A stretch of 64,000 nucleotides of DNA from Candidatus Magasanikiibacteriota bacterium (GCA_041666745.1 JBAYGI010000004.1:3440-67439); one strand, 5' to 3'; shown: positions 10,849 to 40,733, counted from the first letter of the stretch. The notes: generated by a model not told the origin, from the letters alone. Numbers and translations are program-made.

Positions 10849-13800
10849 ATGCAGACTGCTACTGCGACCAAAACTTTTAGACTAGACAAGGATTTCAAAT
10901 ATCCTGAAAATGCCATGCATTTTACGCGGCATTATACCAAAGATGATATCAGCCCATTTGATATGTTCGAGTATGAGATGAGATCTTCGGTAATTCGCGA
11001 ACCAAGTGGCAAATTGATTTTTGAAATGAACGATGTTGAAGTTCCAAAACAGTGGTCGCAGGTGGCTACCGATATTTTGGCGCAAAAATATTTTCGTAAA
11101 GCCGGTGTTCCTCAATATGATGACAACGGTTTGCCAAAATTAAACACTGACGGCACTCCGGTTTTGGGTTCGGAAAAAAGCGTAAAGCAAGTAGCTCATC
11201 GTTTGGCCGGTACTTGGAGGTATTGGGGAGAAAAATATGGTTATTTTGCCGGTGCCAAAGATGCGCAGGTGTTTTACGAGGAATTGGTTTACATGATAAT
11301 CAACCAAATGGTGGCTCCAAATTCTCCGCAATGGTTCAACACCGGTTTGTATTGGGCTTATGGTATCAACGGTCCGGCTCAGGGTCACCACTATGTGGAT
11401 CCGGATACCGGAGTATTGACTCGCGCGATTGATTCTTATTCACATCCGCAACCTCATGCCTGCTTCATCCAATCAGTAAAAGATGATCTGGTAAATGAAG
11501 GCGGCATTATGGATTTGTGGGTGCGTGAGGCTCGTTTATTTAAATACGGCAGTGGAACGGGTACAAATTTTTCCAGTTTGCGTGGTGCCAGTGAAAAACT
11601 TTCCGGTGGTGGACAGTCTTCCGGTTTGATGAGTTGGTTGCGAATCGGTGATAGAGCGGCTGGGGCGATTAAATCCGGCGGTACTACTCGTCGCGCGGCA
11701 AAGATGTGTGTTTTGAATATTGATCATCCGGATATTGAAGAATTTGTGAATTGGAAAGTAAGAGAAGAAGACAAAGTAGCCGCTTTGATTGCGGCCGGTT
11801 ATGAGGGTGGTTATGAAGGTGAGGCTTATTTGACAATTTCCGGTCAAAATTCCAACAACACCGTTCGTATCACTCATGATTTCATGGAAGCGATGGTGAA
11901 AGACAATGGTTGGGAATTGCATTGGCGTACCGACGGTCGTTCTTGTAAAAAAATGAAAGCGCGTGATCTGTGGGATCAAATTGCCTATGCGGCTTGGCGT
12001 TGTGCTGATCCGGGGTTGCAGTTTGATACTACAATAAACGACTGGCACACCTGTCTAGCCTCCGGTCGCATCAATGCTTCCAATCCATGTAGTGAATATA
12101 TGTTTTTGGATGATACCGCTTGTAATTTGGCCTCTATAAATTTGGCGCATTATTACGATCCGGAAACTTCTACTTTTGATATTGCCGGTTTCAAATATAC
12201 TACTCGGGCTTGGACGGTTGTTTTGGAAATTAGTATTTTGATGGCTCAATTTCCTAGCGCGGAAATAGCTCAAAATAGTTATGATTTTCGTACATTAGGT
12301 TTGGGTTATGCCAATATTGGTAGTTTGTTGATGACTGCCGGTGTGGCTTATGATTCACCGGAAGCCTTGGCTTTTGCTGGTGCGGTTACTGCACTTATGA
12401 CGGCGGAGTCTTATTCCGCGTCTGCTGAAATGGCCAGTTATTTGGGCACATTTAATAAATATAATGAAAATCGTGAAAATATGTTGCGTGTAATGCGCAA
12501 CCATCGTCGGGCGGTATTCAATGCCCATGAAGATGAATATGAAAATTTGGCGGTGAAGCCGGTGGGTATTGATCCTCAATTTGCTCCTGCCTATTTATTG
12601 GTAGCCGCTCGTGAAAGTTGGAATCGCACTTTGGAAATGGGAGAAAAATATGGTTTTAGAAATGCTCAAACAACTCTATTGGCGCCTACCGGTACGATTG
12701 GTTTGTTGATGGATTGCGCTACTACCGGAGTAGAGCCGGATTTTGCTTTGGTGAAATTCAAAAAATTGGCTGGTGGCGGATATTTCAAAATTGTAAACGA
12801 ATCAGTGCCGGTCGCTATGAAAACTTTGGGTTATGCCGAAAACGAAGTTAGTGATATCGTAGATTATCTCAAAGGCCGTGCCACCCTCAAAGGTTCTCCG
12901 GTAATTAATCATGAAAGTTTGATGCTCAAGGGTTTGACTCAAGAGGAGTTGGACAAAATTGAAAAATCATTGGCAGGCGCGTTTGAATTGCAATTTGCGC
13001 TCAATGCTTGGACTTTGGGTGAAGACACTCTCAAGCGTTTGGGTTTTTCCAGTGAACAATTTTTGGACACCAACTTTAATTTCTTGAAAGCGCTTGGATT
13101 TAGTGATGATGAAATCGAAAAAGCCAATGAGTATGTTTGTGGTGCGATGGCTATCGAAGGCGCGCCATATCTCAAAACAGAACATTACAAAGTTTTTGAT
13201 ACCGCCAATAAAAATGGTAAAAAAGGGAAACGCTTTATTCATTACTTGGGTCATATTCGTATGATGGCGGCGGTACAACCATTTTTGTCCGGAGCAATTT
13301 CCAAAACTATCAACATGCCAAATGAGGCAACTCTCGAAGATGTAAAAATCGCCTACATGGCTTCGTGGAAATTGGGTTTGAAAGCCAACGCAATTTATCG
13401 TGATGGTTGTAAGATGTCTCAACCGCTGGCCAGTAAATCCGATAGTAAAAAAGAAGACAAAGTAGTCGAAGAAAAAATTGTGGAATTGGTGAAAGAAATT
13501 GTGGAAGTTAAAATGGAAAATAAACAGGAAGAAAAGTCTGAAGAAAAAACAATTAAAAAGTTTACTCTTACTAGTCAAGAACAGACGGTGGTCAACCAGG
13601 TTGTCGATGAAAATCAAGCACAGATTAGTTATGCGCACGATGGCACCAACAAAGGCACAAAGATTTACATCCACGGAGAGCAACGCAAGATGCCATACAA
13701 ACGCAGTGGTATCACTATCAAGGCAAAAGTGGCCGGACAGAAAATATTTTTGCGTACCGGTGAATATCCGGATGGTCGTTTGGGAGAAGTGTTTATAGAT

Positions 13801-14331
13801 ATGTATCGCGAGGGGGCGGCGTTTAGAAGTTTGTTAAATTTATTTGCTATTTCTATTTCTACCGGTTTGCAATATGGTATTCCACTTGAAGAATATGTAG
13901 ATAAATTTACCTTCACTCGTTTTGAACCGAGCGGTATGACCGACCATCCAAATATTCGCAACTGTACTTCTATTATTGATTTTGTTTTCCGAGTATTGGG
14001 TATGGAATATTTGGGAAGAACAGATTTTGTACAAGTAAAACCAACCGGTATTCAAAAAAATCGCGCGCAACAATTGGATAAAATGTTTACTGAAATACAG
14101 GGACAAAAATCTATGACTTTTAAGGAGAGCGAAGCTGATGAAGTGGAAAAACAAAAAATAGTTTTAAAAGTAGATGAGGAAAAAGATCCATTTGTGATGT
14201 CGGCGGCCGACCAGATGTTGGCCAATATGATGGGCGACGCCCCACCATGTTCGACTTGCGGGCACATGACTATTCGTAATGGCAGTTGTTACAAATGTTT
14301 GAACTGTGGAAGTACTACCGGGTGTAGTTAA
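10849..14331 (+). CDS. nrdJ: class II adenosylcobalamin-dependent ribonucleotide reductase
   Basis: 1160 aa with the RNR barrel motifs (e.g. NPCSEYMFLDDTACNLASINL) and a C-terminal Cys-rich tail CSTCGHMTIRNGSCYKCLNCG. Has an internal K/E-rich low-complexity insertion. No intein signature. Confidence 0.92.
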   Translation: MQTATATKTFRLDKDFKYPENAMHFTRHYTKDDISPFDMFEYEMRSSVIREPSGKLIFEMNDVEVPKQWSQVATDILAQKYFRKAGVPQYDDNGLPKLNTDGTPVLGSEKSVKQVAHRLAGTWRYWGEKYGYFAGAKDAQVFYEELVYMIINQMVAPNSPQWFNTGLYWAYGINGPAQGHHYVDPDTGVLTRAIDSYSHPQPHACFIQSVKDDLVNEGGIMDLWVREARLFKYGSGTGTNFSSLRGASEKLSGGGQSSGLMSWLRIGDRAAGAIKSGGTTRRAAKMCVLNIDHPDIEEFVNWKVREEDKVAALIAAGYEGGYEGEAYLTISGQNSNNTVRITHDFMEAMVKDNGWELHWRTDGRSCKKMKARDLWDQIAYAAWRCADPGLQFDTTINDWHTCLASGRINASNPCSEYMFLDDTACNLASINLAHYYDPETSTFDIAGFKYTTRAWTVVLEISILMAQFPSAEIAQNSYDFRTLGLGYANIGSLLMTAGVAYDSPEALAFAGAVTALMTAESYSASAEMASYLGTFNKYNENRENMLRVMRNHRRAVFNAHEDEYENLAVKPVGIDPQFAPAYLLVAARESWNRTLEMGEKYGFRNAQTTLLAPTGTIGLLMDCATTGVEPDFALVKFKKLAGGGYFKIVNESVPVAMKTLGYAENEVSDIVDYLKGRATLKGSPVINHESLMLKGLTQEELDKIEKSLAGAFELQFALNAWTLGEDTLKRLGFSSEQFLDTNFNFLKALGFSDDEIEKANEYVCGAMAIEGAPYLKTEHYKVFDTANKNGKKGKRFIHYLGHIRMMAAVQPFLSGAISKTINMPNEATLEDVKIAYMASWKLGLKANAIYRDGCKMSQPLASKSDSKKEDKVVEEKIVELVKEIVEVKMENKQEEKSEEKTIKKFTLTSQEQTVVNQVVDENQAQISYAHDGTNKGTKIYIHGEQRKMPYKRSGITIKAKVAGQKIFLRTGEYPDGRLGEVFIDMYREGAAFRSLLNLFAISISTGLQYGIPLEEYVDKFTFTRFEPSGMTDHPNIRNCTSIIDFVFRVLGMEYLGRTDFVQVKPTGIQKNRAQQLDKMFTEIQGQKSMTFKESEADEVEKQKIVLKVDEEKDPFVMSAADQMLANMMGDAPPCSTCGHMTIRNGSCYKCLNCGSTTGCS

Positions 14332-33065: not shown

Positions 33066-34037
33066 ATGAAACAAATACGTCAAATTGAAGAAAAAACTAT
33101 TTGGGATCGGTTGGTTTTGGCTGGTTTTGCGCCGTTTGCTCAATCTTGGGATTGGGGAGCTGTTTTGGTTGCTGAAGGAAAAGAAGTGGAAAGGTTGGTG
33201 GTGGAAAACGATGGAGAGGTAGTATTTGGAGCACAAGTGGTTTATCTGCCCCTGATTTTTGGTTGGCGTTATGCTTTTTGTCCAAAAGGACCGGTCGGGG
33301 ATCTGAACGCAGAAAATTTTAGACTGTTGAATGAATATTTTAAGAAAAATAAAATAGTTTTTTGGCGCTTTGAGCCGGCAGAAAAAATCGAGTTGCCAAA
33401 TTTAATTAAAACCGTAGATATAAATCCGCGGGCCACTTTAATTTTGGATTTGCAAAAAAGTGAAGAAGAAATTTTGGAAAAAATGCATACCAAAACAAGA
33501 TATAATATTCGTCTAGCTCAAAAGAAAAATTTGGAAATAAAAAATGAAAAGAATTTAAAAATATTTTTGGAATTAATGAAAAAAACCGGCAGTCGCGATA
33601 ATTTTCGTTTGCATGAGACCAAACACTATGAAGCGATTTTAAATTCAGATTTTTGTAAACAAATTACTATATACTACGAACAAAAACCTTTGGCCACAGC
33701 AATGTTTGTGGGATGTGGTGAAACGTTTACTTATTTATTTGGCGCGTCTGATCACGGATATCGTCAGCTGATGGCGCCATATCTATTGCAGTGGGAGGGA
33801 ATAAAACTCGGGAAGAAAAACAATTATAAATTTTATGATTTTTTTGGTGTGGCACCAAAAATAAACGAAGAAGGCGAGTATGAATTTGATTACAAACATC
33901 AGTATGCCGGAGTAAGTCGATTCAAACACGGTTTCGGTGGAGTATATTATGAAGCACCAGGAACTTTTGATTTAAAAATCAACAAAACCAAATATAATAT
34001 TTATTTTTGGCTTCGCAAATTGCGTAGGATGGTTTAA
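33066..34037 (+). CDS. FemAB-family peptidoglycan interpeptide-bridge peptidyltransferase
   Basis: TRYNIRLAQKK motif and overall FemAB/MurM-like length and pattern. Confidence 0.65.
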   Translation: MKQIRQIEEKTIWDRLVLAGFAPFAQSWDWGAVLVAEGKEVERLVVENDGEVVFGAQVVYLPLIFGWRYAFCPKGPVGDLNAENFRLLNEYFKKNKIVFWRFEPAEKIELPNLIKTVDINPRATLILDLQKSEEEILEKMHTKTRYNIRLAQKKNLEIKNEKNLKIFLELMKKTGSRDNFRLHETKHYEAILNSDFCKQITIYYEQKPLATAMFVGCGETFTYLFGASDHGYRQLMAPYLLQWEGIKLGKKNNYKFYDFFGVAPKINEEGEYEFDYKHQYAGVSRFKHGFGGVYYEAPGTFDLKINKTKYNIYFWLRKLRRMV

Positions 34038-37000
34038 AGCATCGTCACGCTATTTACTTTGTCTCCCGGTTCTTTGAATCTCATCAGTCGTACTCCCTGA
34101 GTAGCGCGACCGGAGGAAGAAATAGATTTGAATGGTAAACGAATTACTTGTCCGTGAGTAGACATCAATAGTAAATCTTTTTCGTTGGCATCAACGGTAT
34201 CCACTACTTTGGCGAAAGTAAGATTGCCGGTTTTAGTGGTAATTTCGGCGGTTTTTATACCACTACCACCACGACCCTGTACTTTGTATTCTTTCAAAAC
34301 CGTGCGTTTGCCAACCCCATTTTCACCAACTGTCAAAAATACCAGCGAAGTATTTTTTGGGTCCACTATATCCATACCGATTACTTCGTCAGAACCTTTG
34401 AGGCGCATACCACGTACACCACCAGCTGTGCGTCCCATTTCACGAACGTCTTTTTCACGGAAGCGGATAGCCTGACCTTGTTTGGTGGCGATCATGATTT
34501 CGTTGTTTCCATTGCTTGGTTTGACCCATTCGAGATTGTCGTCCGGTTTTAATTTTAGAGCAACCAAACCATTGCGTCGAACATTGGCAAAATCTTCCAG
34601 AGCGGTCTTTTTGATATTTCCGCGAGTGGTTACCATTACCAAATATTTGATATTGGTCAAATCACCGGTGCCAAGTAGGGCGGTAATTTTTTCATTTGGA
34701 GCCATTTGCAAGAAGTTGACCAAGGCCTGACCTTTGGCGGTGCGACTGGCTTGTGGAATATCATAAGCCATCAATTGGAATACGCGTCCGCGATTGGTGA
34801 AGAATAAAATATTGTCGTGTGTATTGGTAGCCATCAGATGAGCGACACTTTCTTCTTCTTTGGTAGTAACTCCTATTACACCTTTGCCACCACGTGATTG
34901 TTGGTGGAAAGTATCCGGTGGCAAGCGTTTGATGTAGCCATCGGTAGTGATCATGATCACCGTTGGTTCGTTTGGAATCAAATCTTCGGTAGTAAATTCT
35001 TTTACACCGTGCGCGATGATTTTGGTACGACGTTCTTCGCCGTATTTTTCTTGTATTTCTTCAGTTTCAGTTTTTACGATGCCCAATATTTTTTTCTGAG
35101 AAGATAAAATACTTTCCAAATCTTTGATAATCAATCTTTTTTCTTTTAATTCATCTTCAATTTTTTGTCTTTCCAAATTGGCCAATTGTTGTAGTTTCAT
35201 TTCCAAAATAGCAGTCGCTTGTCGATCACTAAATTTGAATTTGGCGATTAAATTTATTTTGGCTTCGTCTTTGTCGTTACTGGCGCGAATCAATTTGATA
35301 ATCAAATCGATTTTATCCAAGGCGATTTTTAAACCTTCCAAAATATGTTCACGATCCTTGGCTTTTTCGAGATCAAATTCGGTGCGACGACGAATTACTA
35401 CTTGACGATGTTTGATGAACTCTTCCAAAATATTTTTTAGATTCAAAACACGTGGTTGGATACCATCTACCAAAGCTAGCAGGTTGTAGTGGAAAGTTGT
35501 TTGTAGCTCGGTTTGTTTGAAAAGTTGATTTAAAACTTTTTGTGGGTAAGAATCTTTTTTGAGTTCGATAACTATACGCACGCCGTCTTTGTTGGACTCA
35601 TCGCGTAAGTCGCGGATGCCTTCCATTTTTTTATCTTGTACCAAGTTGGCGATTTTTTCAATCATCTCGGCTTTGTTTACTTGGTAGGGCACTTCCGTAA
35701 CAATAATTTGGAACATGCCACTTTTTTTGGCTTCCTGAATTTCGGCTTTGGCGCGAATGACCACACCCCCACGTCCGGTAGCACAGGCCGTCAAAATATC
35801 TTTTTTATTATAAATAATACCACCGGTTGGGAAGTCCGGGCCTTTGATAATTTCGGCCAATTCTTCCACAGTAGTTTGAGGTTCTTCGATCAGTTTGATA
35901 ATACCACCGCAAAGTTCAGAAAGATTGTGCGGAGGAATAGAAGTCGCCATACCAACGGCGATACCCATCGTGCCGTTTAGAAGTAGGTTTGGTAGTTTGG
36001 CCGGTAATACCATCGGTTCATTGTGTGAGCCGTCGTAGGTGGCATTGAAATTGACAGTATTTTTTTCAATATCAAAAAGCATTTCCTCGGCAATCGCGCG
36101 TAAACGGGCCTCGGTATAGCGCATAGCAGCCGCAGAATCCCCATCCATTGAGTTATGGACAAATACACCGGAGGCAAGCGCAAAATTGTGAGTATTATCT
36201 ATTGTCAAATCAAACACATCCTCGCGTGTATTTATTTTTTCCACACTTTTCACTTTGTGATTTTTGGTAATATCCTGCAAAACGCATTCTAAATTTTCAG
36301 TATAGTATTTTTTGAAACCTGTATCCCAAGTGGTGGATGCTCCATATGGATAAACTATTTTTCTCACCTGTTCATACAACTCTTGGTTTAATTTTTGGTA
36401 TCTGCCGAATGTTTCTTTGCAGATAGTTAAAAATTTCTTTTTTCCGGTATTGTTGGTCAAGCGTTTTTTGTTGGAGGCGGCGATTTTATCATGGAATAAT
36501 TGTTTGTATTCCGGCAACTTCCACAGTCGTGTCAGGGTTGTGGTAGCACGTTTACTTAGTTCAACTCTTTTTTCCGGGTGTGCTTGAATATGTTCTTTGT
36601 TTACTCTGCTCAAAGTTTGTTTCATCTTTTCTTTGTATTCCGGATTTTGCCAGTTGATCAAATTTCGTGATTTCATTCTTTCGGCAGTCTTCGCACGGTT
36701 TTCTGGTTTTGACCAAAATTCTTTACGGCCTTGTGCAATTTTTTGTCTGTAAGATTCGTCTTGATGTTTTAAGCTGACATTGTCAGAATGAATTTTCCAA
36801 TGTTCACCCCAGTGCATGCGGGTAATGTTCTCTGGATTGTTATTTGTTTTATCAAAATTGACATGGTGGCGTACTCGTCCATCAGCCTTTTGATATTTTT
36901 TATTGGTCAAGTTATAGTTATCTGCCAAATGATGTGCAGGGATCCACTCTTTTGTTTTATTTTGTAATATTAATGAATAACCTTGACGATTTAACCGATC

Positions 37001-37678
37001 AGTAGTTTCGGAAATTTTTTCATAAATAGGCATCAACGATGTTTCGGCTTGTAAATATTGCGCTTCCTTATAACTACCATCACGTAACATAAACAAATGA
37101 TTTGGTGTGCATCTTATTTCTTCGTCGTTGTCCAAAGTTATTTTTACGAGCTCAGCATTTTGTCTTGTCAATCTAGGGTGTTTAATTTCAGCAATAGAAA
37201 TCAAACCGGCACTATTAACAGTGTAGGTATAATTTTTTTTGCCCTGCTCAAATTCTTTTATTAAATCACCGAAACTCAAAGAACGACCGTCCGTCAGTTT
37301 TACTTTAGTGTCTATGGTAAAACAGCCGAAATTTCCCTGGCCATCCACCAACTGATGACGCATGGAAAACTCCTGTGCCATACGCACCATTGCCTCATAT
37401 ATGGAAGAGTCACCGTGCGGATGGTATTTGGCCATCACCTCACCGACTACGTGGGCGGATTTGCGGAATTTACCGGTATGTCGCAGACCAATATTCCACA
37501 TGGCGTAAAGAATACGACGATGCACCGGTTTGAGTCCGTCGCGAACATCTGGCAGAGCGCGTGAAATGATCACACTCATGGCATATTCCAAGTATGAATT
37601 TTTCATTTCACTGACGATAGAAGTCTGAGTGATTTTTCCGATGTCTCCTCCTTTTGGTAGTTCAAGTTTGTTTTGCAT
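34034..37678 (-). CDS. gyrA: DNA gyrase subunit A, interrupted by an in-frame intein
   Basis: LPDVRDGLKPVHRRILYAM, HPHGDSSIYEAMVRMAQEFSMRHQLVDGQGNFG [intein] SMDGDSAAAMRYTEARL, and a C-terminal beta-pinwheel. 1214 aa raw, 823 aa without the intein. Confidence 0.95.
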   Translation of the reverse strand: MQNKLELPKGGDIGKITQTSIVSEMKNSYLEYAMSVIISRALPDVRDGLKPVHRRILYAMWNIGLRHTGKFRKSAHVVGEVMAKYHPHGDSSIYEAMVRMAQEFSMRHQLVDGQGNFGCFTIDTKVKLTDGRSLSFGDLIKEFEQGKKNYTYTVNSAGLISIAEIKHPRLTRQNAELVKITLDNDEEIRCTPNHLFMLRDGSYKEAQYLQAETSLMPIYEKISETTDRLNRQGYSLILQNKTKEWIPAHHLADNYNLTNKKYQKADGRVRHHVNFDKTNNNPENITRMHWGEHWKIHSDNVSLKHQDESYRQKIAQGRKEFWSKPENRAKTAERMKSRNLINWQNPEYKEKMKQTLSRVNKEHIQAHPEKRVELSKRATTTLTRLWKLPEYKQLFHDKIAASNKKRLTNNTGKKKFLTICKETFGRYQKLNQELYEQVRKIVYPYGASTTWDTGFKKYYTENLECVLQDITKNHKVKSVEKINTREDVFDLTIDNTHNFALASGVFVHNSMDGDSAAAMRYTEARLRAIAEEMLFDIEKNTVNFNATYDGSHNEPMVLPAKLPNLLLNGTMGIAVGMATSIPPHNLSELCGGIIKLIEEPQTTVEELAEIIKGPDFPTGGIIYNKKDILTACATGRGGVVIRAKAEIQEAKKSGMFQIIVTEVPYQVNKAEMIEKIANLVQDKKMEGIRDLRDESNKDGVRIVIELKKDSYPQKVLNQLFKQTELQTTFHYNLLALVDGIQPRVLNLKNILEEFIKHRQVVIRRRTEFDLEKAKDREHILEGLKIALDKIDLIIKLIRASNDKDEAKINLIAKFKFSDRQATAILEMKLQQLANLERQKIEDELKEKRLIIKDLESILSSQKKILGIVKTETEEIQEKYGEERRTKIIAHGVKEFTTEDLIPNEPTVIMITTDGYIKRLPPDTFHQQSRGGKGVIGVTTKEEESVAHLMATNTHDNILFFTNRGRVFQLMAYDIPQASRTAKGQALVNFLQMAPNEKITALLGTGDLTNIKYLVMVTTRGNIKKTALEDFANVRRNGLVALKLKPDDNLEWVKPSNGNNEIMIATKQGQAIRFREKDVREMGRTAGGVRGMRLKGSDEVIGMDIVDPKNTSLVFLTVGENGVGKRTVLKEYKVQGRGGSGIKTAEITTKTGNLTFAKVVDTVDANEKDLLLMSTHGQVIRLPFKSISSSGRATQGVRLMRFKEPGDKVNSVTML
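36152..37324 (-). mobile_element. 391-aa intein with HNH-type homing endonuclease and NUMOD-like repeats, inserted between GQGNFG and SMDGD of GyrA
   Basis: Begins with Cys (CFTIDTKVKL, block A), has a TPNH block B, and ends with ...TIDNTHNFALASGVFVHN followed by Ser (+1). Internal HHVNFDKTNNNPENITRMHWGEHWKIH (HNH motif) and repeated N..W..PEYK modules. Confidence 0.85.
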
Positions 37679-40241: not shown

Positions 40242-40733
40242 ATGCAACAAATAGATAATATAATAAAAAATACACAGATTGCGATTTTTAAAGGTAAGGA
40301 AATTAGGAAAACTTTGTTTCAAGGCGAGTGGTGGTTTTCGGTAACTGATGTAGTAGAAGCGCTTACGGACAGTTCAAACCCAAATGATTATTGGTATCGT
40401 ATGAAAGTTCGTGTAAAAAGTGAGGATAAAATTGAGTTATCAACAATTTGTCGACAACTGAAATTAGAATCTTCTGATGGCAAAAAGTATGAAACTGACT
40501 GTGCCAACACAGAAGGAATTTTTCGTATCATCCAATCAATCCCATCCCCCAAAGCCGAGCCATTCAAACGTTGGTTGGCAAAGGTGGGTTACGAACGAGT
40601 GCAAGAAATAGAAAATCCGGAGCTCGCCACCAAGCGAACACGAATGTTGTATAAAATGAAAGGATATAAGGAATTACTCGGGGCACCTCAAAAACTCATC
40701 ACTACGGTGGTGATTTTTTGTTTAGTGCCTTGA
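40242..40733 (+). CDS. Bro-N domain protein (phage antirepressor-like N-terminal domain)
   Basis: EIRKTLFQGEWWFSVTDVVEALTDSSNP matches the Bro-N consensus (F..iR....ge.WF.a.Dva.aLg). Confidence 0.5.
   Translation: MQQIDNIIKNTQIAIFKGKEIRKTLFQGEWWFSVTDVVEALTDSSNPNDYWYRMKVRVKSEDKIELSTICRQLKLESSDGKKYETDCANTEGIFRIIQSIPSPKAEPFKRWLAKVGYERVQEIENPELATKRTRMLYKMKGYKELLGAPQKLITTVVIFCLVP

Follow-up and report, generated by a model that had tools for sequence, protein, structure and literature searches.

A class-1 intein with an HNH-type endonuclease domain at a little-documented site of GyrA in Candidatus Magasanikbacteria

Class-1 inteins are excised from their host proteins by the class-1 splicing pathway, an established intein chemistry. 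HNH inteins have reportedly been known since 1997, to judge from the title of a paper by Dalgaard and colleagues, which we take to concern the GyrB intein of Synechocystis sp. (Ssp GyrB), the prototype HNH intein of GyrB. The mycobacterial inteins of GyrA are placed directly after the active-site Tyr, and to our knowledge they are LAGLIDADG or mini-inteins and not of the HNH type. Here we describe an intein of 391 amino acids (aa) in gyrA, the gene for DNA gyrase subunit A, of a Candidatus Magasanikiibacteriota bacterium (GCA_041666745.1, JBAYGI010000004.1:3440-67439). The whole stretch of DNA analysed, 64,000 nucleotides long, is called the window, and coordinates are positions in it.

GyrA and GyrB are among the common bacterial intein hosts (PMC4760082). 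The mycobacterial GyrA allele is named GyrA-a in PMC5050341, and Novikova 2016 counts 50 GyrA inteins in four phyla without listing their sites. A gyrase survey noticed archaeal GyrA inteins and then discarded them (PMC9348778). Our literature search, which was limited, found no paper on GyrA inteins in the candidate phyla radiation (CPR, or Patescibacteria) or on an HNH intein in GyrA. It found no description of the site occupied here either, which lies between G110 and S111 in E. coli numbering (G110/S111; the slash marks an insertion point). G110/S111 is a little-documented intein site. Our reading, to which we give a probability of about 0.88, is that the single gyrA of this member of Candidatus Magasanikbacteria (Patescibacteria/CPR) carries a class-1 intein with an HNH homing endonuclease, capable of self-splicing and of homing.

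The gyrA insert, its splicing blocks and its site

The gyrA precursor is encoded by one continuous open reading frame (ORF) on the minus strand, with the insert in frame inside it. Its product matched NF004043 (DNA gyrase subunit A) with 1106.8 bits against a cut-off of 902, and also matched PF00521 and six PF03989 GyrA C-terminal blades. Translation placed the insert at precursor residues 119-509 (1173 bp), beginning with CFTIDTK and ending with GVFVHN, after which the host protein goes on with SMDGD. The first-pass annotation had put a GyrA intein of this length at exactly these positions, leaving the strand unstated, and had called its ends (CFTID... and ...VFVHN followed by S) canonical junction residues; the translation agreed on both points. 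Without the insert GyrA has 823 aa, with the junction ...VDGQGNFG/SMDGDSAAAMRYTEARL. GC content is somewhat lower in the intein than in the exteins (35.8% versus 42.5% overall; 33.8% versus 40.8% at third codon positions), and the strand opposite to it holds no ORF of 80 aa or more.

Three intein hidden Markov models (HMMs) scored above their curated cut-offs: PF14890 with 77.6 bits (cut-off 35.8), TIGR01445 with 43.0 bits (24.5) over intein residues 1-79, and TIGR01443 with 24.6 bits (15.6) over residues 369-391. Because all three cut-offs were exceeded, the match to inteins is not due to chance. The absence of the Hint blocks from such a search had been set beforehand as the result that would speak against an intein, and both the N-terminal and the C-terminal block were found. 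An AlphaFold2 model of the intein was built with 33 homologues and had a mean pLDDT of 88.9. When the model was compared with the PDB by Foldseek, each of the top 50 matches was an intein or another autoprocessing domain of the Hint fold (Hedgehog, BIL), and E-values went down to 1.3e-5; Npu DnaE, NrdJ-1, Ssp DnaE, Mtu RecA and Hedgehog were among them.

The set of class-1 splicing residues is complete (C1, T73-P-N-H76, D372, H379, H390, N391 and the +1 Ser). C1, T73, H76, H390 and N391 were invariant in an alignment of 34 homologues and H379 was kept in at least 90% of them, while D372, the +1 Ser and the other junction residues were read from the window sequence. The invariant positions of the Hint C-terminal lobe in the same alignment were N355, V370, N380, F381, H390 and N391. 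The 391-aa insert in gyrA is a class-1 intein.

When the protein was aligned without gaps to E. coli GyrA (6rks_A, offset +52), the insertion fell between G110 and S111, with the catalytic Tyr122 12 residues downstream. The interrupted host motif is GQGNFG/SMDGD, and the nucleotide junction in a syntenic intein-free locus, L001, is GGC/TCA. Membership in the GyrA-a allele was rejected, since the insertion lies 12 residues before Y122 and NF038098 ('GyrA_w_intein') scored 859.7 on the window protein, below its cut-off of 1850. The earlier claim that this intein interrupts the GQGNFG/S(M)DGD motif, at a site other than that of the mycobacterial inteins, thus held, and one protein of the data set is occupied at both sites. 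This protein, P0016, is a GyrA fragment with the source label Nanoarchaeota archaeon and has two inteins 12 residues apart (...GQGNFG/C...HN/SVDGDSAAAMRY/CVTGD...). Its first intein is an HNH intein of 449 aa with extra repeats, and the second begins at AAMRY/CVTGD, the classic GyrA-a position. In another GyrA fragment, P0249, a third site ahead of the HPHGD motif is occupied by a LAGLIDADG intein (VVGE/C...HN/CLGHYHPHSD), and a repeat-expanded HNH intein follows at GQGNFG/S. Counting the inteins of P0249, no fewer than three intein sites lie in the GyrA N-terminal domain, in a span of about 45 residues.

The HNH domain and the basic helical repeats

The middle of the intein was assigned to the HNH endonucleases through several lines of evidence. 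PHROG 7545 ('HNH endonuclease') matched intein residues 112-194 with E=1.4e-7. Pfam HNH_3 was above its cut-off in the homologous inteins of P0117 (37.3 versus 24.8), P0256 and P0258, and just under it in those of P0043, P0038 and P0115. No Pfam LAGLIDADG match was found in the window protein or in the isolated central domain; as a positive control, PF14528 was detected in the other intein of P0249. In a 31-sequence alignment of the central domain, H131, H154, N162, N166, H175 and H179 were invariant and H153 nearly so. The 34-sequence alignment also contains GyrB inteins from which the motif is deleted, and there every one of these HNH residues except H131 was conserved at 90% or more. AlphaFold2 predicted a beta-beta-alpha-metal motif bearing the conserved residues, with strands at 151-154 and 167-170 and a helix at 172-187.

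When the whole-protein alignment A1 was used as a profile against the PDB, gyrase exteins dominated the matches and the search was uninformative on the insert. The central domain was also modelled separately (residues 100-352, pLDDT 93.7). In BFVD the best match to this model (E=5.9e-8) was a protein of Bacillus phage SP-15 with a Hint domain, followed by dozens of HNH or homing endonucleases of phages and giant viruses, one of them named after I-HmuI, over about 85-95 columns at 2.6-4 Å. Based on PHROGs, the homologues and the model, we regard the assignment to the HNH type (HNH_3-type), and not to LAGLIDADG, as sound. It is the type named by the first-pass annotation, whose quoted HNH string is present at intein residues 151-179. 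By the same evidence the domain would have nuclease activity. Downstream of the repeats, a C-terminal helical subdomain was predicted with four helices (294-309, 314-324, 333-341 and 345-352). It is conserved in the same-site GyrA inteins and may have an endonuclease-related function.

Residues 188-283 of the intein form about five helices of about 20 aa with W-x-x-P-E-Y/N-R/K units, predicted by AlphaFold2 at 190-205, 207-226, 228-248, 251-268 and 271-283. A repeat-unit HMM built from other homologues only matched residues 188-202, 204-219, 224-239 and 266-276, the third of these with 17 bits as the sole strong match. The net charge of the region is +14, which fits nucleic-acid binding, and the region is presumed to bind DNA. 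Under a strict per-unit threshold, which detects only one of the five units of the window intein, same-site relatives had 4 units (P0016), 7 units (P0245, a 513-aa intein) and 10 units (P0026).

The first-pass annotation had likened these W..PEYK modules to NUMOD repeats. Both strings that it cited are present, at intein residues 225-231 and 268-274, but the resemblance to NUMOD received no support. Pfam NUMOD1, NUMOD3 and NUMOD4 gave no match at E<=10 in the window central domain, and no NUMOD match was obtained at E<=10 in 14 aligned repeat regions scanned singly or at E<=1 in six relatives, including P0026 with its ten or more units. The NUMOD3 search that it had proposed thus came out negative. 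A profile of the repeat region (A3) searched against PDB sequences gave two chance-level matches only and nothing related. With no NUMOD, other Pfam or PDB family matching, the NUMOD identity of the repeats was rejected. A similarity to the GerD core (PF17898) recurred below threshold in 5 of the 14 repeat regions, with a best E of 0.0019, and PDB 4o8w appeared at E 1.1. Homology to GerD was not accepted at these scores, and the likeness probably reflects convergence on a shared helix-capping 'DP.Y' motif.

We tentatively propose, with the odds against the full statement, that the W-x-x-P-E-Y-R/K array is a modular repeat for DNA binding, hitherto undescribed and with no relation to NUMOD. The number of its units (about 5 here, and up to 10 when strictly scored) might set the length or specificity of the target. 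In the same proposal the endonuclease would be under purifying selection at the level of gyrase, and G110/S111 would be an undescribed allele exchanged among CPR bacteria, Omnitrophica and DPANN-labelled archaea.

Distribution, selection and rival explanations

The spliced extein was used as query, and the sample consisted of the 120 closest GyrA clusters (77-90% identity; source labels Candidatus Magasanikbacteria or Patescibacteria). The insert was absent from 118 of them, whose proteins have 808-831 aa (most 820-824) and an uninterrupted GQGNFGS. The only carriers were P0130, which is the window protein, and P0212 (Magasanikbacteria GW2011_GWC2_34_16, 1212 aa), which has the same intein with 68.8% identity. 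Locus L001 is syntenic with the window (S1 protein, beta-lactamase-fold protein, small ORF, gyrA, FemAB). At the site it differs from the window by exactly 1173 bp between GGC and TCA, and its intein-less junction reads ...GGTAATTTTGGT/TCCATGGATGGTGAC.... The search for intein-free gyrA alleles in relatives, another check proposed at first pass, was therefore positive. Lineages at 87-90% extein identity lack the intein. In two GTDB genomes, L002 (Magasanikiibacteriota, 90.5% aa identity) and L003 (Patescibacteria, 67%), it interrupts gyrA at this codon boundary as well. As judged from these sequences the distribution of the intein is sporadic, by gain or loss.

With the intein as query, 314 proteins were found at E<=1e-3. 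About 40 clusters have an intein at GyrA GQGNFG/S, in many GyrA fragments or proteins, and carry the labels Patescibacteria, 'Nanoarchaeota', Woesearchaeota, Micrarchaeota and Omnitrophica; NCBI already gives one of these clusters, P0042, the name 'intein-containing DNA gyrase subunit A'. These same-site inteins have 46-61% identity to the window intein. They occur as full-length forms of 391-393 aa, partly deleted forms of 183-328 aa, mini forms of 148-163 aa and also repeat-expanded forms, and by these sequences the size range is the spectrum expected of a homing cycle. End-to-end relatives with 33-39% identity are found in GyrB at GDSAGG/S (cyanobacteria, actinobacteria, CPR and archaea), in RtcB (Nostoc), in two papain-like peptidases (peptidase C1) and in a methyltransferase. 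BLASTP to the GyrB, RtcB, peptidase C1 and methyltransferase inteins covered 100% of the query, with 31-35% identity and E-values of 1e-40 to 1e-64. RadA hosts a mini form, and some actinobacterial GyrB inteins have lost the HNH motif. By sequence relationship the window intein belongs to a known family of HNH inteins and is not a new kind of element. Public metagenomic data hold it in abundance, in part already under an intein annotation. The endonuclease class had at first been called uncommon for inteins, which stands relative to LAGLIDADG but is overstated for an end-to-end homologue of the GyrB and RtcB HNH inteins.

The central domain alone had 386 matches at E<=1e-3, 71 of them at E<=1e-10, among 1.84 billion representative proteins. 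A Pfam scan of nine of the matches showed three short proteins of 189-302 aa, in which HNH_3 was weak or missing, and six long hosts that bear inteins, namely four GyrA, one AAA ATPase and one T4-like portal protein containing three HNH_3 domains. This portal protein, P0258, is 2296 aa long and contains four stretches of intein-splicing sequence, and its three HNH_3 domains are related to the window endonuclease. It suggests that the same family of HNH inteins has a reservoir in phages, and the best BFVD match was also a phage Hint-domain protein.

Two independent metagenomic proteins, P0095 and P0106, join a GyrA N-extein (..G[QH]GNFG) and a mini-intein to a GyrB C-extein (S[AS][RK][QM]AR[ND]K.., with Toprim and GyrB_C). 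Most probably they are chimeras that arose in assembly, where one genome has nearly identical mini-inteins in gyrA and gyrB; the alternative is that they are real recombinants. If the chimera reading is true, exchange between the gyrA and gyrB sites would have been very recent.

Selection was estimated by the Nei-Gojobori method between the window and L002, as the proportions of nonsynonymous (pN) and synonymous (pS) differences. The values of pN and pS were 0.05 and 0.62 for the whole intein, 0.033 and 0.55 for Hint-N, 0.05 and 0.70 for the HNH domain, 0.077 and 0.63 for the repeats, 0.056 and 0.63 for the C-terminal helical subdomain and 0.046 and 0.58 for the C-extein, with pS near saturation, so that the ratios are approximate. 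On these sequences every subdomain of the intein appears as constrained as gyrase, which argues against a decaying endonuclease.

Several results weigh against our reading. Pfam HNH models, including HNH_3, gave no reportable score on the window sequence, for the whole protein or for the central domain, and Pfam scans of the isolated central domain and its sub-pieces gave no HNH or NUMOD match and only chance-level TEN_TERT and DUF7011. Foldseek of the central-domain model found nothing in the PDB, and the BFVD matches to HNH proteins were individually modest (E 2e-3 to 8e-2, with probability ~1.0). We know of no biochemically characterised HNH-type intein endonuclease that could be cited. The saturation of pS makes the selection estimate approximate, as said above. 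Finally, nucleotide identity to L002 was 83.8% for the intein and 83.5-86% for the exteins. The equal divergence indicates that the intein has been inherited vertically since that split; it fits co-inheritance and gives no direct sign of recent homing. For the same reason there is no support for a recent entry of the intein into this lineage by horizontal transfer.

The equal divergence is also a point for a rival explanation, in which the intein is competent for splicing but its HNH domain is no longer an active homing endonuclease. The intein would then be a fixed vertical passenger, with the domain kept for folding or splicing. From L003 and P0212, too, the intein has diverged in step with the exteins, which fits a long vertical descent, and the missing Pfam HNH match in the window sequence points the same way. 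We nevertheless find this explanation doubtful, although it deserves real weight. The HNH motif residues are all retained, being invariant in the central-domain alignment, and pN/pS of the HNH domain and the repeats is as low as that of gyrase. Truly decayed forms look different, as in the same-site mini and partly deleted inteins and in the actinobacterial GyrB inteins without the motif. Moreover, the intein-free alleles at 87-90% extein identity are still available as targets.

The extein-level conservation would be explained if the intein had been co-opted as a conditional switch, with splicing and gyrase activity responding to a signal such as DNA, redox or metal. The strong purifying selection on the whole element speaks for this. 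This explanation is compatible with an HNH homing intein. The position of the insertion, so close to the catalytic Tyr, favours it, and conditional protein splicing has been described for other replication proteins (for example PMC5238726 and PMC7360933), which was counted in its favour. Most close relatives manage without the intein, which is hence dispensable, and insertion at a conserved site is the generic outcome of target choice by homing endonucleases; we consider a switch improbable. It is scarcely credible that the insert is an ordinary domain retained in the mature GyrA, or an artefact of assembly or annotation. Annotation is indeed unreliable here, as the NCBI record P0130 starts at an internal GTG. 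But the Hint blocks are above curated cut-offs, the Hint fold was confirmed, the catalytic residues are intact and the ORF is continuous. Independent assemblies (L002, L003, P0212 and the same-site GyrA clusters) also carry this element, with no shift in the codon boundary. The insert is precisely absent from orthologues and so is not a retained domain. This alternative, which the first-pass annotation had itself raised, is countered by that absence together with the HMM and fold evidence, and we judge it already refuted by the latter two.

For the class-1 HNH homing intein that we favour, we infer splicing, nuclease activity, DNA binding by the repeats and the target site, and the following pathway is predicted. 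The Hint lobes (intein residues 1-100 and 353-391) would fold together after translation and excise the 391 residues. Cys1 would form a thioester, aided by the T-x-x-H of block B; trans-esterification onto the +1 Ser would follow, and Asn391 would then cyclise with the aid of His390. G118 would thereby be ligated to S510, and the GQGNFG-SMDGD loop, 12 residues before the catalytic Tyr, would be restored. Since the loop is broken next to the active site, the unspliced precursor is expected to lack activity, and this essential gene to depend on splicing. The endonuclease would consist of an HNH_3-type beta-beta-alpha-metal nuclease (residues ~112-187), the basic array (188-283) and the helical subdomain (294-352). 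The helical array and the C-terminal subdomain would bind intein-less gyrA around the GGN/TCN junction. The HNH centre would nick or cut this allele, and repair from the intein-bearing copy would spread the element by homing.

Feature coordinates and comparison with known systems

The features of gyrA are collected in Table 1. The gyrA product deposited at NCBI, P0130 (1104 aa, 'Candidatus Magasanikbacteria bacterium'), begins with an internal Val codon GTG (codon 111; 37346..37348, minus strand), read MDGQGNFG..., and is otherwise identical to the window protein. It omits 110 N-extein residues although the ORF runs unbroken from Met1. For annotation this means that the deposited gyrA protein is mis-started, and that the predicted spliced product is a normal GyrA.

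Table 1. Positions of the gyrA features in the window
Feature	Position	Strand	Basis
gyrA precursor ORF (N-extein + intein + C-extein), 1214 aa	34034..37678	-	ORF list, NF004043, PF00521, PF03989
N-extein, 118 aa, end ...VDGQGNFG (E. coli G110)	37325..37678	-	translation; gap-free alignment to 6rks_A
Intein, 391 aa, class 1 (Cys1 ... His-Asn, +1 Ser)	36152..37324	-	HMMs, AlphaFold2, Foldseek, locus L001
Hint N-terminal lobe, intein aa 1-100, block A Cys1	37025..37324	-	TIGR01445 aa 1-79; beta strands in model
Block B TPNH (T73, H76), inside Hint N-terminal lobe	37094..37108	-	alignment, translation
HNH endonuclease domain, intein aa 112-187	36764..36991	-	PHROG 7545, model, alignments, BFVD
HNH core motif VRHHVNFDKTNNNPENITRMHWGEHWKIH, intein aa 151-179	36788..36874	-	translation
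Basic helical repeat region, intein aa 188-283	36476..36763	-	unit HMM, model helices, net charge
C-terminal helical subdomain of endonuclease insert, intein aa 294-352	36269..36445	-	predicted helices, conservation
Hint C-terminal lobe, intein aa 353-391, block F (DVFDLTIDNTHNF) and block G (VFVHN)	36152..36268	-	TIGR01443 aa 369-391; translation
C-extein, 704 aa + stop	34034..36151	-	translation
+1 Ser codon	36149..36151	-	translation
Catalytic Tyr codon (E. coli Y122)	36116..36118	-	numbering via 6rks_A alignment

No inteins were found in the other large ORFs of the window (class II ribonucleotide reductase, RpoB, RpoC, ThrRS and a PilB-like protein), and Rfam and tRNA scans of the window gave nothing relevant. 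The class II (B12-dependent) ribonucleotide reductase (10849..14331, plus strand, 1160 aa) has a C-terminal TSCPD domain, and its barrel domain was matched in two stretches. It gave no intein signal at E<=1e-3, although ribonucleotide reductase is a common intein host. An ORF of 163 aa at 40242..40733 (plus strand), between the gene of the S1 protein and ftsH, encodes a BRO-N domain (PF02498, E=8e-16), which occurs typically in proteins of phages and viruses.

These results do not change the understanding of inteins or of gyrase. They add a well-populated GyrA site, G110/S111, beside the classic GyrA-a, and this one site offers natural full-length, repeat-expanded and mini versions of an intein. 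The most useful leads are the helical repeat, whose copy number varies, and the HNH endonuclease of the intein, which appears to be selected. Since selection appears to act on its endonuclease, the window intein is a promising choice if an HNH-type intein endonuclease, with its helical repeat, is to be characterised biochemically for the first time.

The mycobacterial GyrA-a inteins (Mxe GyrA, Mle GyrA) resemble the window intein in host protein, in class-1 chemistry and in their nearness to the catalytic Tyr, whereas the window intein stands at G110/S111, 12 residues upstream. The modelled core of the endonuclease superposes on phage HNH_3 homing endonucleases, which are free-standing or intron-encoded and I-HmuI-like, and the H-N-H spacing is equal. 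Unlike the window endonuclease, the phage enzymes are not embedded in a Hint domain, and their NUMOD or helix-turn-helix DNA-binding extensions have no detectable relation to the W..PEY array. The NUMOD3/IENR2 modules share the concept of short basic helices in series after a nuclease core, and their pattern (E-x-R/T-K-x-K-I-A/S) is alike by eye, but Pfam gave no match to the window repeats at E<=10.

The comparison also includes the GyrB HNH inteins (P0038, P0043, P0047, P0050, P0074 and P0096), which align end to end with the window intein at 33-39% identity. They differ from it in host and site (GyrB GDSAGG/S versus GyrA GQGNFG/S) and in length (~430-435 aa versus 391 aa). Both have the same order of parts, namely Hint-N, the HNH motif, the W..[PE]Y basic helices, the helical subdomain and Hint-C, and both share the motif HH-x-[DN]F-x-K-x-NN-x-P-x-N and the Hint-C end THNFALASGVFVHN/S.

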